DNA of 64,000 nucleotides from Armatimonadota bacterium (GCA_026392045.1 JAPLCU010000041.1:84-64083); one strand, 5' to 3'; shown: positions 2,733 to 41,167, counted from the first letter of the stretch. Translations and numbers: made by a program. Notes: a model not told the origin generated them from the sequence alone.

Positions 2733-4750
2733 CTAAGGCAATGGCACGTTAATGACAGTGTTCACCATTGTAACCGAAGCATACAAGCCCAACGCTCTGC
2801 CTTCCAACGTCGTTATTCTCACTTCGCCGGAGGTAGAGATTTCGACTCCTGCAGAAGCAATAATGGTTCCCACCATGTTAGCGCCAGCGTTGATCGTCGC
2901 TGCACTGCCGACCTGCCAATAGACGTTGTTGGGATTGCCGATGCCGTCCTTGAATATAACCTCGGCAATTAATGGGTCACTTGTGTCGCCCACGGTGAGT
3001 GATGCCCCCATCTGGAAGACCCAGACTGCATTCGGGTCACCCAAAGCGTCGAGCGTTAGAGTTCCCCCTGCCTCTATATTGAACGTGTCTCCCGCGGCTT
3101 TGTAGACGCCAGGGGCGAGGACCAGCCCACTTAGCTCGCCGGAGGCACTTGGATCAGGCCCCGTTGGGGCTAATCCTGCGAGATCGTTCCACGCTTCGAG
3201 CGAGTCGTCAAAGGCCGCCTGTGCTATCGCCATTGTGGCCAAAGTTCCTCCCACAGGAGTACCACCTGGGTGCGCCGGTGGCGGTGCATCAGTGTATATC
3301 CTCCCGGTGACCTCTCCATCAGGTGCACCGTATTCGTCTCCGGTGCTATCGAAGAATGCGACCACCAAAGTAGAAGCAGCCGTGGTTCCAATATCACCAT
3401 CGATGACGGTAAGGATCCCCTCGTTGGTTATCCCGGCACCACCCCCGAAAGCGCCGAAGGAGGCGGCCGATCCAAGGTCTCCTGGTGCTGGACCCGGCGC
3501 GAAATTGGCCGTGACCGTCTTGTCCTCGTCCATCGTGATCGTGGTCGGATTCATTGTGCCGCTCAAATCGCCGCTCCAGCCGACAAAGTGGTAGCCTGCC
3601 GCCGCCGCCGCCGTCAGCCCAATCACAGTTCCATAGTTATACGTCGGCTGATTCAGCGACTTCATCACATCCCCGTTCTCCGCAATTACCGTCAGGGTGT
3701 AGTTGTTGCCAACGATGAATGTGGCGCTGGGTCCGGCGGCAAGCGCTAAATTACCTGCCGCATCGGATGCCGTGTTCGCCGCTATCGAGATTCCCAGCGT
3801 ACCATTGCCGGTGATACTGGAAATCCTTACCGTTCTGGTTGCCGTGCCACTACCGGAAACAGCTACCGTTCCGTTGGCCGTGCCTGTCTTGTTCAGTGTG
3901 ACATTACCCGCCACAAGCGTGACAGTATTAGCGCCGCCGTACGTAATCGTATAGGTTATCGGGCCACTCCTCGTCTGCAATGCCGAGGGAGCGCCGATAC
4001 TGATTGTCGGCCTGGTGTTGTCAACGGTGAACCTGGTGCTGGGTCCGGCGGCAAGCGCTAAGTTACCAGTCGTATCGGATGCCGTGCTCGGCGCTATCGA
4101 GATCCCCAGCGTACCATTGCCGGTGATACTGGAAATCCTTACCGTTCTGGTTGCCGTGCCACTACCGGATACAGCTAACGTTCCGTTGGCCGTGCCTGTC
4201 TTGTTCAGTGTGACATTACCTGCCAGAAGCGTGACAGTATTAGCGCCGCCATACGTAATCGTATAGGTTATCGGGCCATTTCTCGTCTGCAATGCCGAGG
4301 GAGCGCCGATACTGATTGTCGGCCTGGTCACATCATACGTCACCGTATTGTCGGTGGAGGTAGATGCCTTGCTGGCATTACCCATTTGACGTCGTGCGCG
4401 ACACCGGCCGCCAAGTTCGCAATCACCGTACCACTGCCCGTCATGCCGGTGACGGCCACGTTGTATGTCTTACCGGTCCCGGTGACCGTGCGAACCAGTG
4501 TGCCGGGCGCTGTACCGGTCAGGGTGACATCGCCAGCGGCGAAGTCTTTGACCGCCTTGCTGAAGACCACGGTGAAGTTGATCGGCGACGTCCTCGTCGG
4601 GTCGGCTTGGCCGACTTTCTGATTGATGGTGACGGTGGGCTTGACGACCAATTGTGCAGGCACCATTGATGCCCATCCGACTACAGAAACGACCAGAATT
4701 AATAACGTAAGCCCTAAATATGTGGTGTATATGCGCATTTTCTTGTCCAT
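2733..4750 (-). CDS. repeat-containing surface protein with a C-terminal ice-binding-like (DUF3494-type) beta-helix domain; an apparent frameshift near 4385 splits it into ORFs 4340..4750 (signal peptide + repeat 1) and 2733..4385
   Basis: The N-terminal ORF has a signal peptide and a ~100-aa unit resembling the two near-identical tandem ~100-aa repeats in the 550-aa ORF (also visible as a DNA tandem repeat, ~3700-4000 vs ~4010-4300). The C-terminal region shows LGSAASFGAFGGGAGITNEG...GDIG, typical of the ice-binding-like family. Both frames are open over 4340-4385. Confidence 0.55.
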
Positions 4751-5446: not shown

Positions 5447-5791
5447 TGCATAACTCCTTCTGAGCCTGTCCCATCCATGGTTGGAAGTGGTAGCTCTACT
5501 GAATGCTACACTGCTTTTTCCTTTTTGTCAATCTTTTCGTCCAGTATTGGGGACAGAGCCTTATTTGACAGCAAACAACATAAGTGATCACCTGCTCCGG
5601 AAATCCCAGTCCCTTCCCACTCATTCCCTTCCAGACTCTCCGCTCTCTGCTCTCCACTCTCCGCTGTTCCTGTGAGAGAGTTCAGTCTTGTGGGATTGGA
5701 AAAAAAGCGAGAAATTCAACTGGTGCAAAATACCCCAAAAATATGTTCTCCAAAGGTAATGTTTTTGGAGGTGGGTGCATAAGTAGTCCAT

Positions 5792-28652: not shown

Positions 28653-29615
28653 ATGAAACTATTTTCTAAAAGTGCTCTTCTCTTGGCGACACTGTGTGTC
28701 GCTATCCCTGTTATGCAGGGTTGTTCAAAGAATGTAAGCTCTGGGCAGCTTGTAGTTGGCTTCTCTCAGATCGGTTCTGAGAGCGACTGGCGCAGAGCTC
28801 ACACCAAGAATATTCAGGACGAAGCCCGAAAGCGCGGCATTAAACTGATGTTCTCGGATGCTCAGCAGAAGCAAGAAAACCAGATCAAGGCCATAAAGAA
28901 CTTCATCGCTCAGAAAGTGGACGTAATCATCTTGGCTCCGGTTATTACGAGTGGTTGGGAACCCGTGTTGCGCGAGGCTAAGGCCGCTAAGATTCCTGTG
29001 ATTCTTTCGGACCGTACTGTTGATGTTTCGGATGACAGCCTTTGGGTTACTCATGTTGGACCTAATCTTACCGAAGAAGGCCGAATGGCTGGCGAGTGGT
29101 TGGCTAAGAAAATGAATGGCAAAGCCAATATCGTTGAGCTTACCGGTACCGCCAGTTCCGCTCCCGCTCGTGATCGCAAAATTGGTTTCCAGAATGCTAT
29201 CAAAAATTTCCCTGGTATGAAGATCATCAAGAGCCAGACCGGTGACTTCAAGCGCGTTACCGGCCAGCAGGTTATGGAAGCATTCATCGCATCCGAAGGC
29301 AAGAATATCCAGGCTGTTTATGCGCATAATGATGATATGGCTCTCGGCGCTATCCAGGCTTTGGAAGCTGCCGGTATCAAGCCGGGCAAGGATGTTATAA
29401 TTGTCTCCATCGATGGCGTCAAAGCTGCATTTGAGGCTATGATCGCTGGCAAGCTCAATTGCAGCGTCGAGTGCAACCCACTGATGGGCCCAGCTCTATT
29501 TGATGCTTGCGAAAAGGCAGTCAAAGGCATTGCACAACCGAAGGAAATGCCATCTAAGGAACAATGCTTCGATCAGAGCGTTGCTGCAAAGCTTATCGGT
29601 TCCAGAAAGTATTAA
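28653..29615 (+). CDS. ytfQ: sugar ABC transporter periplasmic binding protein, YtfQ-like (galactofuranose-type)
   Basis: High similarity over the whole length to E. coli YtfQ (VGFSQ.GSES.WR.., IKA...F.AQ.VD.I..APV...GWEPVL.EAK.A.IPV.L.DR). Confidence 0.85.
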   Translation: MKLFSKSALLLATLCVAIPVMQGCSKNVSSGQLVVGFSQIGSESDWRRAHTKNIQDEARKRGIKLMFSDAQQKQENQIKAIKNFIAQKVDVIILAPVITSGWEPVLREAKAAKIPVILSDRTVDVSDDSLWVTHVGPNLTEEGRMAGEWLAKKMNGKANIVELTGTASSAPARDRKIGFQNAIKNFPGMKIIKSQTGDFKRVTGQQVMEAFIASEGKNIQAVYAHNDDMALGAIQALEAAGIKPGKDVIIVSIDGVKAAFEAMIAGKLNCSVECNPLMGPALFDACEKAVKGIAQPKEMPSKEQCFDQSVAAKLIGSRKY

Positions 29616-29718
29616 TTCGGCGTCTTGCCTCTGGCAAGCGATGAATTGACCACAAAATCAAAGAGAAAGATAAGGGAGTGCGACTTAATTCAGCCGCACT
29701 CCCGATCTTAGTACAATT

Positions 29719-31257
29719 ATGACAGAACAAACCAACTTAATCCTCGATATGAAGTCAATAAGCAAGACTTTCCCCGGCGTTAGGGCCCTATCCAATGTGG
29801 ATTTCTGCGTGAAACCTGGTGAGGTGCATTCTGTGATGGGCGAAAACGGCGCAGGCAAGTCTACGTTGCTCAAAATACTTACCGGAGTATATTCCCTGGA
29901 AACCGGCAAAATTGTCTTGGACGGAAAGCCTTTCAAGCCGACATCGCCTGTTGACGCACAAGCCAAAGGCATCAGCGCTATCCATCAGGAAGTTAGCCTG
30001 CTGCCGTATCAGAGTGTTGCTGAAAACATCATGATCGGTCGTCAGCCAAAGAACTTCTTCGGCGCGATACGCTGGGGTGAGCTCAATAGATTAGCCAATA
30101 TTGCTATGCAGCGTCTTGGTTTGAATATAGACGTCACCCGCTCAATCTCAGATTACCCCGTTGCTATAAGACAAATGGTGAGCATCGCGCGCGCTGTCGA
30201 TATGAAATGCAAGATTCTGGTCATGGACGAACCGACCTCAAGCCTTGATGAAGGCGAAGTCAAGGAGCTCTTTGCCGTGGTAAGGAATCTCCGAGATGAG
30301 GGTGTTGGAATTGTATTTGTTACACATTTTCTTGACCAGGTCTACCAGATCACGGACCGGATAACGGTTTTGAGAAACGGAGAGCTTGTGGGCATGTTTG
30401 AGGCCGCTCAACTGCCGAAACTGGGTCTGGTTGGTCATATGCTCGGAAAGAACCCGGATGAGGTCCAAGCGCTGTTCGTTCAAAAGGCCGAATCTGCGCA
30501 CGTGGAAGGCAGCAAACCATTTGTTGAAGCTAGAGGCTTGGGAAGAGTTGGCGCTGTTAAGCCTTTCGATTTGGAGATAAGAAGCGGAGAGGTTTTGGGT
30601 TTAGCCGGACTTCTCGGCTCAGGGCGCACAGAAGCGGCGCGGCTATTCTTCGGCGCGGATAAGCCGACCTCAGGCACGATCGCTGTTGATGGTAAGAACC
30701 TCGGCAGGCTTTCTCCGAAAGTCGCTATAGATAACGGTATTGGCTTTTCACCCGAAGACCGGCGAACCGAGGGCATTATCCCTGACCTCAGCGTTCGAGA
30801 AAACATCTGCCTTGCTATCCACAAGAAAATTTCCCCCGGCGGCTTCATATCGCTCAAAAAGCAGGTCGAAATCGCTGAAAAATACGTAAAAGCGCTCAAT
30901 ATTTCCACGCCGAGCATAGAACAGCCGGTTAAGAACCTGAGCGGCGGAAACCAGCAGAAGGTTATCTTAGCGCGGTGGTTGGCTTCGCAGCCCAAACTGC
31001 TTATTCTTGATGAACCGACAAGAGGAATCGATGTCGGCGCGAAATCTGAAGTAGAGACAGCTATGAAGGATCTTTCGAAAGATGGCATGGCGATACTTTT
31101 TATCTCATCTGAGCTTGAGGAAGTTGTCCGCTCCAGCCATCGGGTGGCTGTTATGAAGGATCGGGCAAAGATAGCCGAGCTGAGCGGAGACCAAATAGAC
31201 GAGCAGGTAATCATGAGTGTGATTGCAGGGGGAGGGCAGCATGCGCAAACAAACTAA
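29719..31257 (+). CDS. ytfR: sugar ABC transporter ATP-binding protein with two NBDs, YtfR-like
   Basis: Duplicated Walker A / ABC signature (GENGAGKST ... LSGGNQQK). Confidence 0.85.
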   Translation: MTEQTNLILDMKSISKTFPGVRALSNVDFCVKPGEVHSVMGENGAGKSTLLKILTGVYSLETGKIVLDGKPFKPTSPVDAQAKGISAIHQEVSLLPYQSVAENIMIGRQPKNFFGAIRWGELNRLANIAMQRLGLNIDVTRSISDYPVAIRQMVSIARAVDMKCKILVMDEPTSSLDEGEVKELFAVVRNLRDEGVGIVFVTHFLDQVYQITDRITVLRNGELVGMFEAAQLPKLGLVGHMLGKNPDEVQALFVQKAESAHVEGSKPFVEARGLGRVGAVKPFDLEIRSGEVLGLAGLLGSGRTEAARLFFGADKPTSGTIAVDGKNLGRLSPKVAIDNGIGFSPEDRRTEGIIPDLSVRENICLAIHKKISPGGFISLKKQVEIAEKYVKALNISTPSIEQPVKNLSGGNQQKVILARWLASQPKLLILDEPTRGIDVGAKSEVETAMKDLSKDGMAILFISSELEEVVRSSHRVAVMKDRAKIAELSGDQIDEQVIMSVIAGGGQHAQTN

Positions 31258-32344
31258 GCCGACTGCAGCGCCCCGTTTATTTTTACACAAAGAAGGACTT
31301 TATAAGGCGTTATTACCATTTGTGGCATTGCTTGTAGTAATACTAATTTGCGCATTTTCCATGCACTTCATAGTTATTAATTCTAAAGGGATTAGTGTTA
31401 AATGGGCAGCTCTACTTGATACGCTGCTTGTCATCGGAAGGCAGGCGACTCCCGTAATATTGATGGCGATGGCTATGACATTAGTTATTGCTACGAAAGG
31501 TATCGACCTTTCGGTCGGCGCTGTTGCTGCGATTTCAGGAGTAACATCGGCGGTGTTATTATTGGCGCCGAAGCCTTTACCGTTGCCCGCGATTATCATG
31601 TTTTGTCTCGGTATAGGTGTGTTGGCAGGCATTTGGAATGGTATTCTAGTAGCCTATTTGAGGATTCAGCCATTTATTGCAACCTTAATTCTTATGGTTG
31701 CGGGACGCGGAATTGCACAACTTCTGCCAACATGCAAACCTGGTGAAACAGAGGGCGCAATTCTTACTTTGCCTCTCAATAATCCGCATTCTAACCCGAT
31801 ATTTGGGCAATTCTGTGAGTTGGGCAATGGGGCGTTCTTAGGATTGCCAAACAGATTCTATCTTGTGGCATTGGTGTGTGCTGTTACGTGGTTTATTGCG
31901 CGAAAAACTGTCTGGGGCACGTATATCGAGGCTGTCGGAAGCAACGAAACCGCATCCAAGTATTGCGGTGTGAACTCATCAATGGTGAAAGTGTTTGTCT
32001 ATGCGTTCTCTGGGGTTTGTGCTGCGCTGGCGGGTTTGTTGCTAACGGCACAAGTTGCTTCTGCTGATGCGAACACGATGGCTCTCAGAGACCACAATGA
32101 GCTCGATGTTATACTCGGGGTTATTGTTGGTGGTACGGCGTTTAGCGGCGGAAAGTTTAGTCTTTTTGGCTCTCTTATGGGTGCGCTCATTATGAGGACG
32201 TTGATTTTCACAGTTCAGGCCGCTGGTTTGAACTGGGGATATGCTTTGGCGATGAGAGCGATTACCGTTGTGATTGTGTGTTTGATTCAGTCGCCGGCAT
32301 TTAGAGCGTCAGTGGCGAATATTTTTACACGTAGGAGCGCGTAG
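31241..32344 (+). CDS. ytfT: sugar ABC transporter permease, YtfT-like
   Basis: Polytopic permease. Start at 31241 is preceded by GGGGAGGG. Overlaps the ytfR end. Confidence 0.8.
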   Translation: MRKQTKPTAAPRLFLHKEGLYKALLPFVALLVVILICAFSMHFIVINSKGISVKWAALLDTLLVIGRQATPVILMAMAMTLVIATKGIDLSVGAVAAISGVTSAVLLLAPKPLPLPAIIMFCLGIGVLAGIWNGILVAYLRIQPFIATLILMVAGRGIAQLLPTCKPGETEGAILTLPLNNPHSNPIFGQFCELGNGAFLGLPNRFYLVALVCAVTWFIARKTVWGTYIEAVGSNETASKYCGVNSSMVKVFVYAFSGVCAALAGLLLTAQVASADANTMALRDHNELDVILGVIVGGTAFSGGKFSLFGSLMGALIMRTLIFTVQAAGLNWGYALAMRAITVVIVCLIQSPAFRASVANIFTRRSA

Positions 32345-32348
32345 GATT

Positions 32349-33635
32349 ATGTCGACAGTTGTTTCAAATAATACTCAAAAAATATCTGGGTTGGCGAATA
32401 AAATTTTCAACGTGCGAACCATTCCAATGCTTGCAACCATTTTTGTCTGCCTGGCGCTTTATATTGTCGCCAGAGCCACAAGCCCTAGCTTTGGCTCAGC
32501 CTATGTGTTCATAAATCTATTTGTTGATAATGCGGCGCTGGGCATTGTCGCTGTTGGAATGACAATGGTCATCGTTTCAGGCGGGATAGACCTTTCGGTG
32601 GCGGGTGTGGTCGCTCTTTGTGCATGCGTAATTGCCAAACTTATGGGCGCTTACCACCTGCATCCGGTGATTTGCTGGGTGATTGCCCTTTGTATCGGCA
32701 CGGGAATGGGTTTTCTGACGGGATGTGTGGTGCGTTATTTTAAGATAGAGCCGTTCATCGCGACATTGGCTGGGCTATTCCTCGCGCGCGGAATCGCGTA
32801 TATGATAAGCAATGAGACTGCTATTCCGATAGAGCACCCATTCATGACCAGGATGACCGAGATCGGCTTGCCGATTAAATTTGGGTTTTCAGCGGTAACT
32901 CATTTTTGCGGTTTTCGCTGGGACCCGTTATGGATAGGTTTCCCTGCGTTGGCGGTACTTGCTGTTGTAGCAATCGGCCTGTATATTACGTTATTCACAT
33001 CGCATTTTATGGGATTGCCTGTTGGGCGAACAAAAATCAGGGTTTATGCTCTCAGAGGTTTCTTAGCTGCATTAGCTGCGACAGTGTTCACTGTCTGTCT
33101 TCTCCAATTGGTTTTTCCAATTGGGTCATATTGGATTGGTTTTCGTTGGGATCCTATATGGATCGGGCTGCCCGCATTGGTTTTGCTTGCAGTTGTTGCT
33201 GTTGGGCTGTATATTACTTTCTTTACTTCGTTTGGGCGCAATCTATTCGCTGTTGGCGGCAATGAGGATGCCGCGCACTTGATGGGGCTGCCTGTTGGGC
33301 GGACCAAAGTGATGGTTTACATGCTCAGCGGATTCCTTGCCGCATTGGCTGCGATAGTGTTTACGATTTACCTGCCCTCCGGCGACCCGACCGGCGCTGA
33401 TGGCTGGGAGCTCAATGCAATTGCCGCATCAGTTATCGGAGGCACTCTGATGACCGGTGGAGCGGGTAATGTGTTTGGAACTCTTATCGGCGTTATGATT
33501 CTGGGAATTATTATGTCCAGCATGGACTTCCATAACGTGAGCTCGTATTACGCAAAAATCGTTATCGGCGTGTTGCTGTTGGTTTTTGTAGTTTTGCAGA
33601 GATTCTTGAGCGGCAGCTCGTTGCGCAAGAATTAG
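32349..33635 (+). CDS. yjfF: sugar ABC transporter permease, YjfF-like, carrying an internal diverged tandem duplication (~32911-33138 vs ~33139-33400)
   Basis: Permease motif FGRNLFAVGGNEDAAHLMG is present only in copy 2. The duplicated ~76-aa segment begins GFRWDP(L/I)WIG(F/L)PAL in both copies. Confidence 0.75.
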   Translation: MSTVVSNNTQKISGLANKIFNVRTIPMLATIFVCLALYIVARATSPSFGSAYVFINLFVDNAALGIVAVGMTMVIVSGGIDLSVAGVVALCACVIAKLMGAYHLHPVICWVIALCIGTGMGFLTGCVVRYFKIEPFIATLAGLFLARGIAYMISNETAIPIEHPFMTRMTEIGLPIKFGFSAVTHFCGFRWDPLWIGFPALAVLAVVAIGLYITLFTSHFMGLPVGRTKIRVYALRGFLAALAATVFTVCLLQLVFPIGSYWIGFRWDPIWIGLPALVLLAVVAVGLYITFFTSFGRNLFAVGGNEDAAHLMGLPVGRTKVMVYMLSGFLAALAAIVFTIYLPSGDPTGADGWELNAIAASVIGGTLMTGGAGNVFGTLIGVMILGIIMSSMDFHNVSSYYAKIVIGVLLLVFVVLQRFLSGSSLRKN

Positions 33636-33689
33636 GAAATAGGGAATAGGGAACAGACGGGATTGATGAGTAAGAGTTCAGTCTTAGTG

Positions 33690-33775
33690 TATTTGTCATT
33701 CCGAACTTGATTCGGAATCTAAGCCTTAAGCGTAACATATCCTGAATCGAGTTCAGGATGACATGTAATTCCCGC
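33690..33775. repeat. family-2 structured palindromic element, copy B (hairpins TTCCGAA-cttgat-TTCGGAA and ATCCTGAA-tcgag-TTCAGGAT; end GACATGTAATT)
   Basis: Homologue of 18781-18870. Stems are conserved through paired substitutions. Confidence 0.6.
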
Positions 33776-33892
33776 AAGACTGAACTCTCTCATTGATGAT
33801 GGGCTTGAGCTCCTGAACCACTGAATAGTGTAAAATAGGTTATTCTAGAGTTGCCATTCATAAGGACGTTTGATGCTTTTAGAGAGGTATAT

Positions 33893-36610
33893 ATGGAGTT
33901 GGAGTTGGAAAACAATACTTGTTTGAATAGCGCTGAGTTTGATCTGAAGCTGGATAATGGCGCGGTTGTTGGTCTCAGGCGGGTGGAAGACTCATTCGAT
34001 ACGCAATATATCCTGCCTGGTAAGAGGCTGGGGGATGTTATCTTGCGCTATCGGCAAGGAGCTGGCGAGTGGGTGCAGACCGATACGGGTGTACTGGCAG
34101 GAAGCGGGCAATTGACCCCGATAACGTCTTGCTGCGGTTCGCAATATGGCGCTAAATATAATATTGATGATCGCTTAAATCTGGTAAGCCGATTCGACCT
34201 GCAGGGCGGCTATCTCAATTGGATAATTGCGATCAGCAACAATTCAGACCAGCCTATTGAGATCGGCGATCTGGCGCTGCCGTTTGAGATGAATACCGTG
34301 TTTGCCTGGAATAAGCCTGCGACTGAAAGCGTGTTCAAACATAGCTTTATATCCGGTTATTGCTCGTATATGTTTTGGATGAGGCCCAATAGTGTGGGGC
34401 CTTACCTTGCGATGACGACTTTCGATAATACGAAACTTGAGTTTTATGATGCGTTCAGGAGCAATACCGGCGAAGGCAGCTTCAAGGCTTATGTTCATTC
34501 CGCGGCAGAGGGCGCTATTGCCAAGGAAAAGGGCTGCAACTGGCGACAGCCCAACACCAGCCTTATTCTCGCTCCTAAGGGCTCTAATGGCGATGCTGCG
34601 ACCTATGGCTTCAAGTTCCAGTGGGCTGCGGATTATGATGCTGTGCGGCAGGTCTATGTGGATGAGGGCAAGATTGATATTCAAGTCGTCCCCGGAATGA
34701 CCATTCCCAGCAATCTCTTTGCCAAATTCTCCCTGCGGACAAAGCAGAAGATCAATTCTCTTGAGCTGGAGTTTCCTGAAGATTCTGAGATTGAATATCT
34801 GGGAACCGCAGACGAGCTTACCCAGCTTTTTCAGGTGAAATTCAAGAAGCTTGGCGAGAATCTGATTACAGTCAATTACGGCGATGGCTGTTATATGTTC
34901 CTTGAGTTCTTTGTAACGGAGCCCATTGAGACTCTTATTAAGAAGCGGGGCGCGTTTATCAAGAAATGCCGGCACAAGGACCCCAGCAAATGGTATAACG
35001 GTCTGATTTCTGAATGGAATATGGAAACTCAGGTTTTGCTTGGGCCTGATAACTACGATAAGATCAAGGGATGGCGTATTTACGAAGTTACCTGCGATGA
35101 CCCCGGGCTGTGTAAGCCGTCGTTCTTAGCTGCGAAAAATGCTGAGTATCCTGTTCAGGATGAAGTGGATGCTCTTGATTATTACATCGAGAACTTCGTC
35201 TGGGGCGGCCTTCAGCGCACTACTGAGGAAGAATACTCGTATGGCATCTACGGCATTCCTGATTGGAAAACGCTCAGGGACAGCGCAGACCCCGGTGCAA
35301 AAGGGCAGACGCATATCTGGCGGATCTATGATTATCCGCACATCGCTCTGATGTATTTCGGGATGTATAGAGTGGCCGCGCAATTCCCGAACATTAAGAC
35401 CAAACTCGACAAGATCGAGTATCTAAAGCGCGCGTATGGCACTGCAGTCGCTATGTTCACCATTCCCACAGAGACTAGAGATTGGAGCGCATATAAGACC
35501 GGCCTTTACAACGAGCTTGTGTATCTGGACATCATCGATGCGCTTGAAGCCGAGGGCATGAGCGTGCAGGCGTATCGGCTGCGCAAGCATTGGGAGAAGA
35601 AAGTCAGATACTTCGTTAATGATAACCCGAGCATGTTCGGTTCGGAGTATCCGTTTGATTCTACGGGTTTCGAGAGCACTCACGCGTTTGCCAAGTATGC
35701 AAAAGCTCATGCAGTTGTGCCGGATACTGAAGAAGGCAACAAGAAGGACATCATATTGCCTGAAGCGGCTGATAAGTTCATGGAGATGCAGACAGCGTGC
35801 AACATCTTCTGCCGCGGTTGGCTGGAGCCTTCGTATTTTCTGCTTGGGAGCGATTATCGAGGCTGCGGCAACACTGCTTACCTTTTGAGTTACATGGCGC
35901 AGATGGGCGGGTGGTCACTATTGGATTACGCTTTGTATCACACTGCTGACCCGTTCCCATATCTGCGGCTGGCTTATGCTTCATATCTCAGCTCCTGGGC
36001 TTTGATGAATTCGGGAACTCCCGAATCTAACTATGGTTACTGGTACCCCGGCGCTGAAAACGATGGCGGGGCAGGGGGCGGCTTTGAGCCTGCGCCTTAT
36101 TGCCATACATGGCTCGAGCAGCCATGTTCACGCGGTTCATGGTACTATTCGTGCGAGATCGATCTTGGTTTCAGCGGCGCATTAAGGGCTGCTGCGACCG
36201 TGCTTGCGGATGACCCGCTCTTTGGCATGTTCTGTTATGGCGGAGACTTTGAAAAGATAATTGGCGGCATCAATATCCATCCTAAAGATGGCTTGCGGAG
36301 ACGTTTCCACGCTGTGATGGCAAATCAACGTCTTCATATAGAATTGGCGAGCGATCACTTTGATTCTGAAGCTCCGATCTATCTAGCCGATAATTTCTCT
36401 GAGATCAGGTTTTGCATTGAGAACGAAGGCGGCCATTCACATGAAACAAAATTGCGGCTTTCGGGTATGAAAGCAGGGAAATACGTTGTCTGTGTGGAAG
36501 AAAGTACTAAGGAATGTTATAATGTAACAGATCAAGGCGATCTGCAAATCTCTTTGCCATTAGCAAGCAAAAAACAAGTCGCTTGCGTTGCAATCAAAAG
36601 GGCTATCTAA
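33893..36610 (+). CDS. large hypothetical cytoplasmic protein (905 aa) with no signal peptide and no recognised domain
   Basis: GAGAGG SD 5 nt before the ATG at 33893. Long uninterrupted ORF with normal codon usage. Lower GC than the flanks. Confidence 0.65.
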   Translation: MELELENNTCLNSAEFDLKLDNGAVVGLRRVEDSFDTQYILPGKRLGDVILRYRQGAGEWVQTDTGVLAGSGQLTPITSCCGSQYGAKYNIDDRLNLVSRFDLQGGYLNWIIAISNNSDQPIEIGDLALPFEMNTVFAWNKPATESVFKHSFISGYCSYMFWMRPNSVGPYLAMTTFDNTKLEFYDAFRSNTGEGSFKAYVHSAAEGAIAKEKGCNWRQPNTSLILAPKGSNGDAATYGFKFQWAADYDAVRQVYVDEGKIDIQVVPGMTIPSNLFAKFSLRTKQKINSLELEFPEDSEIEYLGTADELTQLFQVKFKKLGENLITVNYGDGCYMFLEFFVTEPIETLIKKRGAFIKKCRHKDPSKWYNGLISEWNMETQVLLGPDNYDKIKGWRIYEVTCDDPGLCKPSFLAAKNAEYPVQDEVDALDYYIENFVWGGLQRTTEEEYSYGIYGIPDWKTLRDSADPGAKGQTHIWRIYDYPHIALMYFGMYRVAAQFPNIKTKLDKIEYLKRAYGTAVAMFTIPTETRDWSAYKTGLYNELVYLDIIDALEAEGMSVQAYRLRKHWEKKVRYFVNDNPSMFGSEYPFDSTGFESTHAFAKYAKAHAVVPDTEEGNKKDIILPEAADKFMEMQTACNIFCRGWLEPSYFLLGSDYRGCGNTAYLLSYMAQMGGWSLLDYALYHTADPFPYLRLAYASYLSSWALMNSGTPESNYGYWYPGAENDGGAGGGFEPAPYCHTWLEQPCSRGSWYYSCEIDLGFSGALRAAATVLADDPLFGMFCYGGDFEKIIGGINIHPKDGLRRRFHAVMANQRLHIELASDHFDSEAPIYLADNFSEIRFCIENEGGHSHETKLRLSGMKAGKYVVCVEESTKECYNVTDQGDLQISLPLASKKQVACVAIKRAI

Positions 36611-36722: not shown

Positions 36723-37400
36723 ATGTCGAAAGTAAAAATGAAACGTGGATTTTCTTTGATTGAGCTGTTGGTGGTCATTGGAATTATAGCCATTTTGGCT
36801 GCGATACTTTTTCCAATGCTCACCAAAACTCGTGAGAAAAGCAAGCAAGTCAAGTGCATGAATAATGCGGCTCAGATGGGCAAGGGCTTCAAGATGTACG
36901 GCCAAGATTGGGACAACAAGTTTCCCATCAGCGCAGAGGTCAATAACGGTAAGGGCCAGTGCTTGCTCTACGATGACCTGAAAAAATACATATCCAACAA
37001 TTACAACCTGTTTATATGTCCAGCTGATACAGGCGATGCTTTGATCGGTTTGAGTAGTGCGCCCTACTGGAAGGGATATTTTGGATCAAGTTGGGCGTGG
37101 CCTAATGCTTATTCAGGTGGAAAATGGGTTTGTGGTTTCTCTCAGGATAATCCGCGGCCGTCATCCGGAACTTACAACTGGGCTCAACTTATGCCTTTAA
37201 CTAGACGCCCTGTAGTATTCGATCATCGCCCGTGGCATTGGGGTGTGAAAGGGCAGACCGTAGGTGATTGGGGTAACATCTCAGGAAAATGTAGTGTTCT
37301 CTGGTGCGATGGGCATGTGGGTATGTGTGGATACAAAACGATGTTAGCAATTATGGAGGCGGGAGGCAGCACCACTATGCCAACTGGACTTGAGTGGTAG
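36723..37400 (+). CDS. prepilin-type N-terminal cleavage/methylation domain protein of the DUF1559/H-X9-DG class
   Basis: N-terminal KRGFSLIELLVVIGIIAILAAILFP. C-terminal ...SVLWCDGHVG. AGGAGG RBS. Confidence 0.8.
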   Translation: MSKVKMKRGFSLIELLVVIGIIAILAAILFPMLTKTREKSKQVKCMNNAAQMGKGFKMYGQDWDNKFPISAEVNNGKGQCLLYDDLKKYISNNYNLFICPADTGDALIGLSSAPYWKGYFGSSWAWPNAYSGGKWVCGFSQDNPRPSSGTYNWAQLMPLTRRPVVFDHRPWHWGVKGQTVGDWGNISGKCSVLWCDGHVGMCGYKTMLAIMEAGGSTTMPTGLEW

Positions 37401-37496: not shown

Positions 37497-38417
37497 TTAC
37501 GCGCTGGCTGATATCGGCGATGGTGTCTCATCGTCAGATTCAGGCATGGTCGGTTTGCCAGGCTTACCAGAGCCCAAACGCCAAATGATAAGATAGATCA
37601 GGCTGCCTATTCCAATTAGGCCAAGTCCGACCCATCCGCTTTGCCAGTTCCACAAGAACGGGATTTTTGCTGGCCACCATTTTTCCTTCAGAAACTCGAT
37701 GTTTTGCAGCAGAATCGACATGCGGGTCATAATCGTATTGCCGAAAAATCCACCGAATAGGATCATCAATAACCATCGGCCAACTTCAGCAGTTCTCTTC
37801 ACCACAGGATTTGAGTGGTCGAATGAGAACAAGAAATACACCATTACCGTTATTACACCAACAAGAAAAATGATGTTGCTAATGGATTGCCAAAAGTCGA
37901 ATGGCACACCGCCACCCAGAAATGGCTGCCCATTAGGCCAGATTGCAGAATGCGCCCCAGAGATGAGCGGTCTGGCTGAGTCTATGATTTGAGGCACATT
38001 TGGCAGCAATTGCTGCTTGAAAATGATGCCTCCATTGGCGCCGACGGTGATGCCAATAACGATTCTTGAAAGCCACATATACTTTCTGCTGGTTTGGAAA
38101 TACCAGAGAGATCCCAAAAGCCCCAAAGACAAGAACAGGATAAACGTTCCAGGGTTATCCACGACGCACCGTATAAAAGAACCAATCCAACTGCTGCTTT
38201 TGTAGTTTGGAATTAGTCCGCAGAACTTATCCCACCACAGCGGCCCCAGAACCTGTTTCCACGTTACGATAAGAGTATATCCCGTTCCAATGCCGATGCA
38301 GGTATTGAGCACAATTCTATAGATCTTGTTGTCATTATACAGGAACGAATATATCGATAGAACAATAACTACGCTTATCCATGCCTGAAGGAGTAGTTTC
38401 ATCGATTCATCAATCAT
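37497..38417 (-). CDS. polytopic integral membrane protein (unknown function)
   Basis: Multiple TM helices. Start ATG (MIDESMK) overlaps the upstream stop (ATGATTGA). ~40% GC. Confidence 0.6.
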   Translation of the reverse strand: MIDESMKLLLQAWISVVIVLSIYSFLYNDNKIYRIVLNTCIGIGTGYTLIVTWKQVLGPLWWDKFCGLIPNYKSSSWIGSFIRCVVDNPGTFILFLSLGLLGSLWYFQTSRKYMWLSRIVIGITVGANGGIIFKQQLLPNVPQIIDSARPLISGAHSAIWPNGQPFLGGGVPFDFWQSISNIIFLVGVITVMVYFLFSFDHSNPVVKRTAEVGRWLLMILFGGFFGNTIMTRMSILLQNIEFLKEKWWPAKIPFLWNWQSGWVGLGLIGIGSLIYLIIWRLGSGKPGKPTMPESDDETPSPISASA

Positions 38418-39276
38418 TGTTGGCCTTCTTTCGTTTAGCGGCAAAATAACCAATATTGCCGAGCACAATAGCAAAAATAATGACTAAGTGCCCGTATGCC
38501 AAAGGTAGGATAAGTTTGGAACCATAGTTTTTGCGGTCTGTAATACTATTCGGGTGCAGCAATTTATCATACTCTGCCCCACCGCGAGCTCCGACCAAGA
38601 ACCCTGCAACCTGCCCGGACGGCATATATCTGTATATCGTAGTTGAGCTGATTCCGCCGCCGCCAAACACCAATTTGGTGCCATAGACCTCATGTATAAA
38701 TCCAATGTAGTCTTCAGATGGCCAGTAGTTTGTGCTGGTTAAGAGCCCAACATCATTAATGTTATTAAGATTCTTCGTGATGGGAATATCTGTGGTATAA
38801 TGTCCTTTTACGTCTTTTTCGAACTGTTTCTTAAAGTCTTTGGCAAATAGTTGCATAGCGAACGCGCCACCCTTGGTGATGCCCAGATTGACCCAGTCAA
38901 CACCATACTCTATATCTTTGAACTCTGGATGGCTCGCAATTAACTTTTTAATAATATCGTCAGTGTAGCTGGGAGCCAACGCATCGCCATCCAGAGCAAA
39001 AACCACGAACTTCTGCCTGTTTCGCAGAAGATGCTCGAAAAGGGCTTCTGTTTGTCCTTTGTTTTCACCCACAGAGCCAGGTCCCCAAGGACTGTCAACA
39101 AGCACAATCTTGTCTTTCGGAACGCTTTGCACGGCGTCATAGTAAGCCTGCGTTTCAGGCGAAACATAGACGTCAATGTCAACAGGCCGAATGAACGGTA
39201 TTGTACAGGCAATGGCGACGAAGAGATAAATCCATCTTCTGTCCATTGTCTGGAGTCTTGCGAGAAAATCTAACAT
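38410..39276 (-). CDS. bitopic membrane protein: N-terminal TM, ~220-aa soluble domain, C-terminal TM
   Basis: Hydropathy pattern only. No recognisable motif. Confidence 0.55.
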   Translation of the reverse strand: MLDFLARLQTMDRRWIYLFVAIACTIPFIRPVDIDVYVSPETQAYYDAVQSVPKDKIVLVDSPWGPGSVGENKGQTEALFEHLLRNRQKFVVFALDGDALAPSYTDDIIKKLIASHPEFKDIEYGVDWVNLGITKGGAFAMQLFAKDFKKQFEKDVKGHYTTDIPITKNLNNINDVGLLTSTNYWPSEDYIGFIHEVYGTKLVFGGGGISSTTIYRYMPSGQVAGFLVGARGGAEYDKLLHPNSITDRKNYGSKLILPLAYGHLVIIFAIVLGNIGYFAAKRKKANND

Positions 39277-39278
39277 AG

Positions 39279-40385
39279 TTATAACTCCCTATCAAAGAAT
39301 GCGCCACGCTCAAGCGAGAGCCAGTAGCGCAGACCAATTGCCATAGATGCCAACATAATTCCAAACCACATGCCGCGTTGTGAAGCTGTGTTCAAAACAA
39401 GCTGAAGCCATCTGCTTATAGCAGGCACCAAACCTGTTTGTCCAGGAATCCAACTTGTCAAATATACTCCAAATGGAATCTGTCCAAGCATAACAATCAG
39501 CGCCGAGACCATCATCAACACCGCTTCGCGAGATTTCGCTTTGAATGAGCGATATGCCGCAGAGGCCAGATAAAATGACAGAAGCGAGAATGTGGCGGAA
39601 TAGAATGCAAACTGAATATATTGGGCAACTGTATCATTCAGCAGAAGAAGAATCTTGTGGTAGTTGGTGTCAGGTTCGGCTCCATACCCAATGCCGGCAA
39701 ATATTCCAAATACAAGCCCTGCAAAGAAAAGCACACTCATATACCATTCTTTGGTTTTCTTGCGAATGGCGGATGAGTGCATTATCCAAAGACTGAACAA
39801 TGCAAAACCCCAAGCCATCGTCGCCAACACGATTAGACCGTTACTAACATCAGTCAATATGCTGGAAACGTAGGTTGTCGGCCCAATCTGAGATACAAGA
39901 TCGCCGACTAGTAAACTGCCCGGATCATCAATCTGGCTTTCCCCACCGGAGTTCTCCATCCTGAATGAAACAGTTTTCGATTTACCATTTTCCACTTTGG
40001 CGTTGATGGTCTTTGTTCCGCCGAGAATCCCAATGGTCAGCTCAGCTTTGTTTTTTCTGCAGATAATGCCTCTCTCAGAATTGTCCATTGCAATAATGCT
40101 TGTAGTTGAAAGCTCAATATCTGATGTGGCGATTCTCTTTGTTTGATCGCCTTTGATCCAATCAACCATCAGTTTGTCTGTGACAGGCATTTTGACAGTG
40201 CGTTTGAATGTTGTAAGTTCTAGCATAACATCACTGGCCATGGTATCCATATCAGTAATAGAGACAACTGACGTGACGATACCGGACGTGCCCTGTCCAG
40301 GCATAATTGGAGGCACTGCAAACTCCAAGAAGTAGTAGAGCCCAGCCACAAACGTAACTATTAAAATGAGTTTCTTTTTCCACAT
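39279..40385 (-). CDS. membrane protein with one N-terminal TM, a ~190-aa extracytoplasmic domain and five C-terminal TMs (ABC-2-permease-like topology)
   Basis: Topology inferred from hydrophobic segments. 2-nt gap to the downstream gene. Confidence 0.55.
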   Translation of the reverse strand: MWKKKLILIVTFVAGLYYFLEFAVPPIMPGQGTSGIVTSVVSITDMDTMASDVMLELTTFKRTVKMPVTDKLMVDWIKGDQTKRIATSDIELSTTSIIAMDNSERGIICRKNKAELTIGILGGTKTINAKVENGKSKTVSFRMENSGGESQIDDPGSLLVGDLVSQIGPTTYVSSILTDVSNGLIVLATMAWGFALFSLWIMHSSAIRKKTKEWYMSVLFFAGLVFGIFAGIGYGAEPDTNYHKILLLLNDTVAQYIQFAFYSATFSLLSFYLASAAYRSFKAKSREAVLMMVSALIVMLGQIPFGVYLTSWIPGQTGLVPAISRWLQLVLNTASQRGMWFGIMLASMAIGLRYWLSLERGAFFDREL

Positions 40386-40390
40386 GGTTG

Positions 40391-41167
40391 CTACTTCCCA
40401 AATATATTGTAGAGTATGGCCAGACCGGATGTCGAACCAAACGTCACAAGTAATGTTCCAGCTATGATGACCAGAAGAATAGCTATCTTGCAGTAGTCTT
40501 GGCCCACAATGCTGCCAAGCATCGTAGGTTCTCGCGTCAGGTAAGCGCCTGCGGCGTATAATTCTTCACCAATAACGGTATAATCGCAGGTTGCGATGAA
40601 GAATGGTATCTGATTCGGTTCTGCGCATCCCGCTATTTGAACAGCGCCTACATGTTGTCCTGGTTCGGTATAAAGCAGCGCCGTAAAGTCGTAGGAGCCG
40701 AAATAGAAGTGGGAAGCCGTTTTTTCGTCTTTCATTATCTGGGCAGAAGCCAGAGCAGTTTGGTCGCCTTGAGCCGCGAGAAATCGAATGTCCTTTGCAT
40801 CAAACAGCTCAGGACGCCCCTCAGCAGCGTATGCTCCTTTTACAACGTCCTCTGCAACAGGTATAACGACAGGAACACATGTGAATACAATAACACGGGC
40901 TCCCATCTTTGCGGCGGTTTGAGCTACATGGCCTAGAACTCCGATAGCCGCAAGGGTCGGCGCCGCAGTAAAGTCAGCATTGCCCGTGTTGAATAGCATC
41001 GGGCGCCCCATTTCGGTTGCTCGACCTACAGCCTCGTCAATCTCCTTCAGACCGGCAATTCGGCGGATATATATCTCCTTGCCGGATCGTGCTGAAAAGA
41101 TTTTGTAGAGGATGATGGCCGCGATCGCCATGATAATTATGAAGATTTGTGAGTTTGCGTGTTGCAT
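40391..41167 (-). CDS. membrane-anchored protein (N- and C-terminal TM, central soluble domain)
   Basis: ORF with hydrophobic termini. 5-nt gap to the next gene. Confidence 0.55.
   Translation of the reverse strand: MQHANSQIFIIIMAIAAIILYKIFSARSGKEIYIRRIAGLKEIDEAVGRATEMGRPMLFNTGNADFTAAPTLAAIGVLGHVAQTAAKMGARVIVFTCVPVVIPVAEDVVKGAYAAEGRPELFDAKDIRFLAAQGDQTALASAQIMKDEKTASHFYFGSYDFTALLYTEPGQHVGAVQIAGCAEPNQIPFFIATCDYTVIGEELYAAGAYLTREPTMLGSIVGQDYCKIAILLVIIAGTLLVTFGSTSGLAILYNIFGK

Follow-up and report, generated by a model that had tools for sequence, protein, structure and literature searches.

A leaderless DUF5695-family protein encoded downstream of a YtfQ-type importer in an Armatimonadota bacterium is distantly homologous to the PL27 L-rhamnose-alpha-1,4-D-glucuronate lyases

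In a stretch of 64,000 nucleotides from an Armatimonadota bacterium, here called the window, the four genes of a YtfQ/GafA-type furanose ABC importer are followed on the same strand by a gene for a protein of 905 amino acids. This raises the question of what the protein does and whether its position behind the importer tells anything about its role. A sequence-only reading of the window had described a very large soluble orphan protein without signal peptide or recognisable motif, reminiscent of carbohydrate-active enzymes, and had proposed that it processes the imported sugar or oligosaccharide, possibly as a member of a new glycoside hydrolase or phosphorylase family.

The gene is an intact open reading frame on the plus strand, running from an ATG at position 33893 to a stop at 36610, with the sequence GAGAGG located 5 nt 5' of the start codon. 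Upstream of this ATG there are just 14 further in-frame codons before a stop, and no signal peptide is gained by including them. Reading frame, translation and upstream codons thus agree with the description of a large soluble protein without signal peptide. The conserved domain begins at about residue 15 and is preceded by Sec or twin-arginine (TAT) leaders in most homologues, whereas the 905-aa protein carries no leader.

Already the first Pfam scan ruled out that the protein is an orphan. It matched DUF5695 (PF18951) with 205.7 bits and E = 1.4e-60, covering residues 45–607 and a second stretch, and thereby cleared the curated gathering threshold of 25.2 bits, so that the supposed lack of a recognisable motif did not hold either. 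NCBI already contains a 100% identical protein (P0001) under the name 'DUF5695 domain-containing protein [Armatimonadetes bacterium]', scoring of 8,000 candidates yielded more than 2,193 homologues, and the family forms 1,701 clusters at 50% identity. No NCBIfam model matched the protein, and a single-sequence phmmer search against the PDB found nothing. DUF5695 is a very large bacterial family, of which the members studied so far are all lyases acting in the trimming of plant arabinogalactan-proteins. What had been taken for a possible new family is thus a member of DUF5695, remotely homologous to polysaccharide lyase family PL27; more precisely, the protein, which already had a name, belongs to a clade that is uncharacterised within a known superfamily.

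This main clade of DUF5695 is found in Acidobacteriota, Gemmatimonadota, Verrucomicrobiota, Planctomycetota, Paenibacillaceae and Armatimonadota. The 905-aa protein aligns with its members over the full length at 50–73% identity and keeps every one of the approximately 190 columns that are invariant in the clade. Of the positions conserved to 95% or more in the clade, eight differ in it, including those of the lineage-specific changes Q360R, G737C and H745C. The glutamine at position 360 is conserved superfamily-wide, but the same exchange occurs in a 71%-identical homologue (P0003) and is therefore a lineage trait and not an error. G737C and H745C, both at clade-conserved positions, are unique among 43 aligned sequences, and H745 is not conserved beyond the main clade.

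Sequence and fold both show homology of the protein to the PL27 L-rhamnose-alpha-1,4-glucuronate lyase. When the clade profile was compared with the PDB, the sole match was 5NO8 (E = 5.4e-9), the structure of BACCELL_00875, which is a PL27 Rha-GlcA lyase composed of a beta-sandwich and an (alpha/alpha)6 barrel (PMC8377490). The full sequence of this enzyme was put together from a metagenome contig with a frameshift (L091) and confirmed by comparison with the PDB. Profile alignment of the clade with PL27 by hhalign gave a probability of 98.4% and E = 4.6e-15 over 483 columns with 20% identity, pairing residues 15–589 of the query with residues 30–541 of PL27; for the second half of the barrel, the alignment (hhalign with relaxed settings and MAFFT) is of low confidence. 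An AlphaFold2 (AF2) model of the protein (pTM 0.82) was matched by Foldseek to 5NOK and 5NO8 with E of about 1e-26, TM scores of 0.71–0.73 and about 14% structure-based identity, and the matches that followed had E above 1e-6 and TM scores of about 0.2. Both the fold of a carbohydrate-active enzyme and an (alpha/alpha)6-type barrel, which had been one of the earlier guesses, were thus recovered. The relation is also visible from the other side, as BACCELL_00875, the founding PL27 enzyme, reaches 27.3 bits on PF18951, just over the cut-off, and PF18951 is present in nearly all PL27 relatives listed. However, an HMM built from 30 PL27 sequences only, used as a stand-in for a dbCAN-type family call, matched the protein in just two short fragments, with a score of 16.2 bits (E = 5.7e-6), and the protein is therefore not a member of PL27 proper.

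The predicted architecture resembles that of PL27 in its N-terminal beta-sandwich and (alpha/alpha)6 barrel. Residues 1–342 (33893–34918, plus strand) form a beta-sandwich region that can be aligned to its N-terminal counterpart in PL27 and holds N116, as seen from AF2 secondary structure, hhalign and the superfamily alignment. Residues 345–766 (34925–36190, plus strand) are predicted to form the (alpha/alpha)6-type helical barrel, presumably the catalytic domain. A C-terminal beta-sandwich predicted by AF2 at residues 769–903 (36197–36601, plus strand) is an addition that the 694-aa PL27 enzyme does not have, the PL27 alignment stopping at the end of the barrel.

Within the barrel, the motif WRIYDYPH (residues 476–483; 35318–35341, plus strand) corresponds in profile and superfamily alignments to NRGYNYMW in PL27, and its R477 and Y481 are invariant in the main clade, in divergent DUF5695 members and in PL27. 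A second motif, SEYPFDSTGFEST (residues 584–596; 35642–35680, plus strand), contains E585, which is invariant across the superfamily and pairs with E537 in HEVNYEQS of PL27 (hhalign and superfamily alignment). The aromatic- and glycine-rich segment singled out in the sequence-only reading, YGYWYPGAENDGGAGGGFEPAPY (residues 714–736; 36032–36100, plus strand), has 11 positions invariant in the 43-sequence alignment and aligns with the conserved AYMYPYKIDGVKAEFYDPYANDQDW of PL27 in hhalign with relaxed settings and in the MAFFT superfamily alignment. The AF2 model is weak in several conserved loops including this one, with pLDDT below 50 at residues 707–718 and 727–750. Across the sampled superfamily, the invariant residues, with PL27 counterparts in parentheses, are N116 (N131), R477 (R447), Y481 (Y451), Y492 (Y462), E585 (E537) and Y667 (Y613), i.e. 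arginine, tyrosine, glutamate and asparagine, and no conserved carboxylate pair is evident in the superfamily alignments. Many aspartates and glutamates of the barrel are invariant in the main clade and not found in PL27, for example D480, D589, E594, D654, D724 and E732. Further differences are W453 and H612 of PL27, which are replaced by H483 and S666, and a strongly diverged second half of the barrel. The N-terminus of BACCELL_00875 is hydrophobic and signal-like, whereas the 905-aa protein is leaderless. The Rha-GlcA lyases of PL27 include BACCELL_00875, BT0263 and BACFIN_07013. A secreted or periplasmic location and an arabinogalactan-protein utilisation locus, both expected of a PL27 enzyme, were not found for the 905-aa protein in the window.

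Other carbohydrate-active families showed much less similarity. No Pfam or NCBIfam match to GH121, GH127, GH142 or GH146 was found for the 905-aa protein. A GH146 structure (8K7Y) appeared at rank 45 in Foldseek with E = 1.1e-3 and TM scores of 0.24–0.30, and GH121 and GH142 were not among the top 50 matches. GH94 structures matched the AF2 model with E between 4e-6 and 7.5e-5 and TM scores of about 0.2 only, and no likeness of the kind expected for a GH94 or GH65 phosphorylase emerged. As most family members are secreted and the GH94 matches are weak, the proposed phosphorylase is unlikely for the family. GH121 was also discarded as a structural relative, as it resembles GH142 and GH63 instead, with a beta-sandwich, (alpha/alpha)6 barrel, beta-sandwich layout (PMC7263609).

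At least 277 DUF5695 loci were confirmed. To get an idea about the physiological context, the neighbours of DUF5695 genes were surveyed at 80 genome loci of relatives; clusters of open reading frames overlapping or antisense within the DUF5695 gene or lying in high-GC DNA were left out as spurious. Genes of GH127 type (beta-L-arabinofuranosidase) were found at 33 of the 80 loci, at 20 of them within 500 bp. S9/DPP-IV peptidases were found at 17 loci, proline-racemase-family genes of the hydroxyproline type at 11, M24 peptidases at 10, GH51 and GH27 at five each and a POT peptide transporter at four. With GH127, GH51, GH27, GH78, GH38 and GH2 genes among the neighbours, the earlier assignment of a carbohydrate role gains support, and the combination of GH127, prolyl peptidase and proline-racemase-family genes points to a role in the breakdown of hydroxyproline-rich plant glycoproteins, to which PL27 is linked as well. 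A genuine PL27 gene has different neighbours, with GH43 genes next to SusC and a hybrid two-component regulator, as in the polysaccharide utilisation loci of Bacteroides. Genes for uronate processing did not turn up in the neighbourhoods of the DUF5695 family. This absence weighs little, since a genuine PL27 gene, taken as a positive control, likewise lacks GH88 and GH105 within 10 kb, and the argument against lyase chemistry from missing GH88/GH105 genes was therefore dropped. In contrast to the main clade, none of the typical GH127, peptidase or proline-racemase-family neighbours lies within the 64-kb window, which contains housekeeping genes plus the importer.

In Paenibacillaceae, an apparent operon consists of genes for an AraC regulator, a GH127 enzyme, a DUF5695 protein, a binding protein and two permeases, and both enzymes are leaderless. 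This arrangement recalls the HypBA system of Bifidobacterium longum, in which GH121 (HypBA2), GH127 (HypBA1) and an ABC importer serve the use of beta-L-arabino-oligosaccharides of hydroxyproline-rich glycoproteins (PMC7263609). Relatives of the 905-aa protein likewise lie beside GH127 genes and ABC importers, and the domain layout of GH121 is that of the AF2 model; however, homology between GH121 and the 905-aa protein is undetectable. A functional analogy between the DUF5695 clade and HypBA, which we purely infer, would rest on these likenesses.

The importer of the window lies on the plus strand and comprises a YtfQ/GafA-type periplasmic furanose-binding protein (28653–29615; NCBIfam YtfQ_transport and PDB matches), a YtfR-like tandem ABC ATPase (29719–31257; Pfam ABC_tran in two stretches and NCBIfam YtfR), a YtfT-like permease (31223–32344; NCBIfam) and a YjfF-like permease of 428 aa (32349–33635; NCBIfam), which contains an insertion relative to the 331-position model. 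The listed TTG start of the YtfT-like permease overlaps the ATPase gene, and the true start may therefore be later. The closest PDB matches of the binding protein are YtfQ (2VK2, E = 5.6e-92), GafA (5OCP, E = 2.6e-91) and 6HBD (E = 1.4e-84), and ribose-binding proteins match it at about 1e-42 or weaker. This four-gene CUT2 layout, with binding protein, tandem ATPase and two permeases as in GafABCD and YtfQRT-YjfF, together with a binding protein nearest to YtfQ and GafA, identifies a furanose importer. The components had been called clear orthologues of the E. coli galactofuranose system; YtfQ, YtfR, YtfT and YjfF are indeed their best NCBIfam models, but all four scores are below the equivalog cut-offs (372.7/510, 642.4/850, 254.7/535 and 344.2/363 bits). 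The YtfQ/Gaf family also includes members specific for L-arabinofuranose, and its importers bind monosaccharides (PMC10191376). Phe40, the residue to which Shewanella GafA owes its specificity for arabinose, appears in the printed alignments as histidine in the binding protein of the window and as glutamate in YtfQ, which makes the ligand of the importer unpredictable. No arabinose or galactose catabolic genes were found near the importer. Since importers of this kind carry monosaccharides, nothing in their cargo is an obvious substrate for a cytoplasmic enzyme of 905 aa. A thematic link may be mentioned, as Gaf/YtfQ importers take up L-arabinofuranose and the DUF5695 family is associated with beta- and alpha-L-arabinofuranosidases.

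Importer and DUF5695 gene are separated by a spacer of 258 bp (33636–33892), in which consensus scans detected neither a promoter nor a terminator. The spacer contains a long imperfect palindrome at about 33662–33797, and a hairpin spanning about 135 nt is strong when folded (z = -4.2). The idea that the palindrome is a mobile repeat or an RNA already described was rejected, as just a 13-mer of it recurs (at 5677), the similarity does not extend further and Rfam has no matching family.

From these data, the 905-aa protein is probably a carbohydrate-active enzyme of the PL27 superfamily. It would be a cytoplasmic DUF5695/PL27-superfamily enzyme built of beta-sandwich domains at the N-terminus, an (alpha/alpha)6 barrel and a further beta-sandwich at the C-terminus, and its sugar substrate would lie in the central barrel pocket, as in PL27. 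The conservation of the tyrosine and arginine residues suggests that they may be catalytic, and a tyrosine is reportedly the base proposed in the abstract of the PL27 lyase study. Catalysis would most likely be a PL27-like beta-elimination by tyrosine and arginine on a plant glycoprotein glycan whose cap contains uronic acid, and the linkage cleaved is probably not the Rha-GlcA bond of PL27. Judged from the neighbourhoods of its relatives, the clade would help to degrade hydroxyproline-rich plant glycoproteins of the arabinogalactan-protein or extensin type, in partnership with beta- and alpha-L-arabinofuranosidases, alpha-galactosidases, prolyl peptidases and proline-racemase-family (hydroxyproline-type) enzymes. 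The copy in the window, having no leader peptide, would act on small imported fragments. Its place after a Gaf-type importer would probably be a lineage-specific juxtaposition, with at most co-regulation by arabinofuranose-containing plant material. As a whole, lyase chemistry included, this explanation is tentative and stands at a little under an even chance.

The chemistry might instead be hydrolytic. The main DUF5695 clade would then be a new glycoside hydrolase family on a PL27 scaffold that cleaves a neutral linkage in extensin-type glycans, e.g. as a beta-L-arabinobiosidase analogous to GH121, as an alpha-1,3-L-arabinofuranosidase or at the bond between sugar and hydroxyproline, and the copy in the window would serve as a cytoplasmic hydrolase of small arabinofuranosides after their import. 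This is possible, with the balance of probability against it. The neighbours amount to a nearly complete extensin toolkit without uronate enzymes (GH127-like genes at 33 of 80 loci, GH51, GH27, peptidases, racemase-family genes and POT), and extensin, the best fit to these neighbourhoods, is not known to contain uronic acid, so that a hydrolase is favoured on this point. The barrel aspartates and glutamates peculiar to the main clade, the position of the window gene after an importer whose family takes L-arabinofuranose and the resemblance of the Paenibacillaceae GH127-DUF5695-importer operon to the Bifidobacterium beta-arabino-oligosaccharide system (PMC7263609) point in the same direction. 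However, the only characterised relatives are lyases, conservation in the sampled superfamily comprises arginine, tyrosine and a single glutamate without a carboxylate pair, and GH121 and GH142 are outside the top 50 Foldseek matches. A wider formulation, which we regard as rather doubtful, would make the main clade a new carbohydrate-active family, either of hydrolases or of lyases with a new specificity, comprising thousands of proteins from soil phyla that perform a hitherto unassigned step in hydroxyproline-rich glycoprotein breakdown, e.g. by releasing arabinofuranosyl residues from hydroxyproline or glucuronate, with the window copy acting on imported fragments and co-regulated with an L-arabinofuranose importer.

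The model of the sequence-only reading, a dedicated and co-transcribed partner of the YtfQRT-YjfF-type importer that processes an imported galactofuranose-type sugar or oligosaccharide, is unlikely. Shared strand, the 258-bp gap without consensus terminator or promoter, the cytoplasmic location of the protein and L-arabinofuranose as a thematic fit are in line with it, but the suggested co-occurrence with ytfQ-like sugar-uptake loci largely failed. A YtfQ-like binding protein was found within 10 kb at none of the 80 genome loci, any CUT2-type ATPase or permease occurred at just four, and none of the three closest relatives (65–73% identity) has a YtfQ-type importer alongside; they adjoin GH38, GH2 or unrelated genes. 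The importer adjacency is thus absent in every relative examined and is ruled out as a conserved feature. The strong hairpin in the spacer, the mostly secreted family and a sub-clade whose conserved neighbour is a downstream prepilin-like gene and not the importer also argue against the model, and importers that bind monosaccharides have no need of a 905-aa glycan-cleaving enzyme (PMC10191376). It is very unlikely that the copy in the window is a paralogue in decay or with a changed function, whose ancestral activity may be lost or altered. It does lie outside the usual gene context of the family, has no leader and carries the eight changes at conserved positions, including Q360R, G737C and H745C. 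Nevertheless, the reading frame is intact and full-length, all invariant columns are kept, Q360R is shared with P0003, H745 is conserved in the main clade alone and leaderless copies also occur in intact Paenibacillaceae sugar operons.

Hydroxyproline-rich glycoproteins such as extensins and arabinogalactan-proteins are abundant components of plant cell walls, and their microbial breakdown was worked out chiefly in Bifidobacterium and Bacteroides. The result for the window is the more modest one, as the protein had already been named and its adjacency to the importer is not conserved. For the family, PL27 homology and gene neighbourhoods now tie the 1,701 clusters of DUF5695 to the breakdown of these glycoproteins in soil phyla. 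Once established, the activity would probably give a new CAZy family or a new specificity within PL27, and thousands of gene annotations reading 'DUF5695' would improve with it, which makes the clade a reasonable target for enzyme discovery.

Directly downstream of the DUF5695 gene, a protein of 225 aa with a prepilin-type N-methylation motif is encoded on the plus strand (36723–37400; Pfam N_methyl). Along its entire length, it shares 48% identity with the product of the gene directly 3' of P0003, and the pair of DUF5695 and prepilin-like genes is thus kept in one close relative.

The 905-aa open reading frame at 33893-36610 (+) was confirmed; its frame at its longest spans 33851-36610 (+), and the best start is ATG 33893, preceded by GAGAGG 5 nt upstream. 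The gene can be extended by only 14 in-frame upstream codons before a stop. Because neither the best start nor these codons provide a hydrophobic leader, the protein is predicted to reside in the cytoplasm, in agreement with the sequence-only reading, which had seen no signal peptide. The same reading took the protein for an orphan, and this view had to be given up: it matches Pfam DUF5695 (PF18951) with 205.7 bits (E = 1.4e-60), and NCBI holds an identical sequence named 'DUF5695 domain-containing protein [Armatimonadetes bacterium]'. Homologues scored at 50-73% identity number more than 2,193 and belong to Armatimonadota, Paenibacillaceae (Cohnella, Paenibacillus), Gemmatimonadota, Verrucomicrobiota, Planctomycetota and Acidobacteriota. 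When 1.84 billion cluster representatives were searched with a profile, 1,701 clusters reached E <= 1e-3, among them multi-domain proteins as long as 2,700 aa. A literature search on DUF5695 returned nothing beyond PL27.

Most DUF5695 homologues carry Sec or twin-arginine leaders, but these are lacking in the window protein, in its closest relatives and in the copies from Paenibacillaceae. Twin-arginine leaders (S/T-RR-x-FLQ) were found on many homologues, those from Gemmatimonadota, Longimicrobiales and Capsulimonadaceae among them (for example homologues P0013, P0016, P0019, P0053 and P0087; loci L013 and L016-type). Such leaders point to export after folding, perhaps together with a bound cofactor or metal.

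A PDB search with the single window-protein sequence gave no match. A profile of 43 homologues (A1) retrieved exactly one PDB chain, 5NO8_A (E = 5.4e-9), which is BACCELL_00875, one of three characterised PL27 L-rhamnose-alpha-1,4-D-glucuronate lyases (PMC8377490); the paper gives this enzyme a beta-sandwich and an (alpha/alpha)6 barrel. The AlphaFold2 model of the window protein (mean pLDDT 79.8, pTM 0.82) comprises beta domains (residues 1-342), a helical barrel (residues 345-766) and a beta-sandwich (residues 769-903). When this model was compared with the PDB by Foldseek, 5NOK and 5NO8 ranked on top (E about 1e-26) with a target-normalised TM-score of 0.71-0.73 (14% identity across about 750-800 aligned columns), and all remaining matches had E > 1e-6 and TM about 0.2. 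The early guess of an (alpha/alpha)6 carbohydrate-active fold is thereby upheld at the level of the predicted structure.

The full 694-aa BACCELL_00875 sequence was reconstructed from a metagenome contig and checked against the PDB. It reaches 27.3 bits on PF18951, slightly over the 25.2-bit gathering threshold, and PF18951 is present in nearly all PL27 relatives listed, so that, on these scores, PL27 is a marginal subgroup within Pfam DUF5695; one Bacteroides cluster among these relatives bears the NCBI name 'DUF5695 domain-containing protein'. When profiles of the window protein's clade and of 30 PL27 sequences (A2) were aligned, the probability was 98.4% (E = 4.6e-15, 483 columns), the second half of the barrel being alignable only with relaxed hhalign settings. 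With a PL27-only HMM the window protein reached no more than 16.2 bits (E = 5.7e-6), split between two short fragments, so a dbCAN-type pipeline would not assign it to PL27. It is also 211 residues longer than BACCELL_00875, and its C-terminal beta-sandwich has no counterpart in PL27. The window protein is best seen as a member of a sister clade of PL27 that is uncharacterised, very populous and extended in architecture.

A MAFFT superfamily alignment, independent of hhalign, used 20 divergent DUF5695 representatives as a bridge. The polar residues N116, R477, Y481, Y492, E585 and Y667 are strictly conserved in the main clade, in these representatives and in PL27, with R352, Y431, Q441 and Y488 close behind, and two motifs stand out in the superfamily, WRxY(D/N)Yx(H/W) and (S/H)E. 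The segment quoted in the sequence-only reading (36032-36100, residues 714-736; YGYWYPG..NDGGAGGGFEPAPY..W) is placed opposite the conserved AYMYPYKIDGVKAEFYDPYANDQDW of PL27 by both hhalign and MAFFT. Every clade-invariant column is kept in the window protein, which deviates at eight positions where conservation in the clade is 95% or more. Q360R (34970-34972) is shared with the 71%-identical homologue P0003; in the superfamily alignment, 39 of 40 other sequences have Q at this position. Two Cys substitutions eight residues apart, G737C (36101-36103) and H745C (36125-36127), are unique to the window protein and fall in a conserved loop of low confidence in its model.

The sequence-only reading had tied the protein to the upstream importer, but this adjacency is not conserved in the relatives examined. 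No YtfQ-like binding protein lies within 10 kb on either side in any of 80 genome loci, taken one per species, and a CUT2-type ATPase or permease occurs in only four, all Gemmatimonadaceae, 6-8 kb away. The three closest relatives have other neighbours: a DUF6262 gene precedes the DUF5695 gene in the 73%-identical relative, a GH2 gene is divergent from it in the 71%-identical one and a GH38 gene precedes it in the 65%-identical one.

All neighbouring ORFs were clustered, real clusters were annotated, and HMMs made from them were used for re-search. This identified a GH127-type beta-L-arabinofuranosidase-like protein in 33 of the 80 loci (20 within 500 bp), S9/DPP-IV prolyl peptidase in 17, an HExxH protein without Pfam match in 16, an NPCBM/melibiase-like protein in 14, a second DUF5695 copy in 13, a member of the proline racemase / hydroxyproline epimerase-dehydratase family in 11 (nine adjacent), M24 Xaa-Pro peptidase in 10 and SusC/SusD in 8-9. 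GH51 alpha-L-arabinofuranosidase (5/80), GH27 alpha-galactosidase (5/80) and a POT peptide transporter (4/80) were counted in the initial clustering alone. In 49 of the 80 loci, GH127, a prolyl peptidase or a proline-racemase-family gene is present, singly or together. Annotated contigs give the same picture: those of Paenibacillaceae combine an AraC regulator, GH127, DUF5695, a binding protein and two permeases, adjoined by M3 and M24 peptidases; proline dehydrogenase is also nearby in Cohnella, and a Phycisphaerae copy follows a GH78 rhamnosidase. Read against established plant cell-wall chemistry and two published reports (PMC7263609, PMC10850190), this set would fit the linkages of hydroxyproline-rich plant glycoproteins, namely Hyp-O-arabinosides, Ser-O-alpha-galactose and arabinogalactan-protein caps. 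None of these recurrent families occurs anywhere in the 64-kb window, the rest of which carries housekeeping genes (for example metX/metW, HtrA-like protease, MutS2, SecDF, RecJ and RelA/SpoT). The DUF5695 family is a good enzyme-discovery target, but the window locus itself adds little beyond pointing there.

Two or three DUF5695 copies lie within 20 kb in 13 of the 80 loci (L019, L027, L034-L037, L040, L045, L046, L057, L061, L072 and L090), which suggests that copies diverged in specificity inside one degradative locus. The HExxH neighbour (about 340 aa, HEFAHAIH; L090 13324-14346 (-) and 15 other loci) has no Pfam or NCBIfam match and may be an uncharacterised metallopeptidase of the same pathway.

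The window protein belongs to the DUF5695/PL27 superfamily, shares its fold and retains its conserved polar core. The barrel would hold the substrate pocket at its centre, and the conserved Tyr/Arg/Glu set would carry out catalysis; in PL27, a tyrosine is reportedly the proposed catalytic base. PL27-like beta-elimination is slightly favoured, tentatively, because lyases are the only characterised relatives and because the sampled superfamily conserves Arg, Tyr and a single Glu rather than a carboxylate pair. Both points count against hydrolysis on the same scaffold, an only slightly less likely alternative that draws on the arabinofuranose- and extensin-flavoured neighbourhoods, because extensin contains no uronic acid. 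The absence of GH88/GH105 was dropped as an argument against a lyase, as a genuine PL27 gene likewise lacks them within 10 kb.

The four genes upstream encode, by Pfam domains, a Peripla_BP_4 binding protein, a tandem ABC ATPase and two BPD_transp_2 permeases. Their proposed orthology to the galactofuranose system held in part: YtfQ, YtfR, YtfT and YjfF are the top NCBIfam matches, yet each of the four stays under its equivalog cut-off. The closest solved structure to the binding protein is E. coli YtfQ (2VK2, E = 5.6e-92); Shewanella GafA (5OCP) gave E = 2.6e-91, Mycobacterium GafA (6HBD) E = 1.4e-84 and ribose-binding proteins about 1e-42 or weaker. YtfQ/Gaf transporters take L-arabinofuranose and/or D-galactofuranose and outside Proteobacteria are often tied to arabinose use (PMC10191376). 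As the importer carries monosaccharides, it would be unable to supply substrate to a glycan-cleaving enzyme. A perfect 12-bp GC-rich stem-loop (29674-29703) separates the binding-protein and ATPase genes, as is typical of ABC operons in which the binding-protein transcript is stabilised. The YjfF-like permease (32349-33635, +) has 428 aa and matches the 331-position model in two stretches, which indicates a mid-protein insertion of about 100 residues.

The 258-bp spacer between importer and DUF5695 gene (33636-33892) has a minimum free energy of -81.5 kcal/mol (z = -4.2 versus shuffles) and contains a long imperfect palindrome or hairpin of about 135 nt (33662-33797). Scans of the spacer found no consensus promoter or terminator, and the palindrome lacks a T-run and matches no Rfam family; the one part of it that recurs is the 13-mer AGAGTTCAGTCTT, at 5677-5689. 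The palindrome may act as an attenuator or in mRNA stability, or be a mobile-element relic.

The gene directly downstream of the DUF5695 gene (36723-37400, +) encodes 225 aa with a prepilin-type N-methylation motif; the product ends in ...CDGH..., reminiscent of H-X9-DG/DUF1559 proteins. Over its full length it shares 48% identity with the product of L092 6598-7266, directly downstream of P0003, and is the only conserved neighbour found in the sub-clade, in this one relative alone. Similar N_methyl genes lie near DUF5695 at L002, L006 and five Verrucomicrobiota loci. A four-gene block led by a DUF6754 protein (37497-41167, -; 258, 368, 288 and 325 aa), the last three proteins of which have no Pfam match, recurs with the same order and similar sizes on a related contig (L006 594-4235) near the DUF5695 homologue P0004 and is a conserved operon in this lineage. 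Finally, a 550-aa protein (2733-4385, -) has both an ice-binding-like domain (PF11999, E = 2.8e-44) and a Listeria-Bacteroides repeat.
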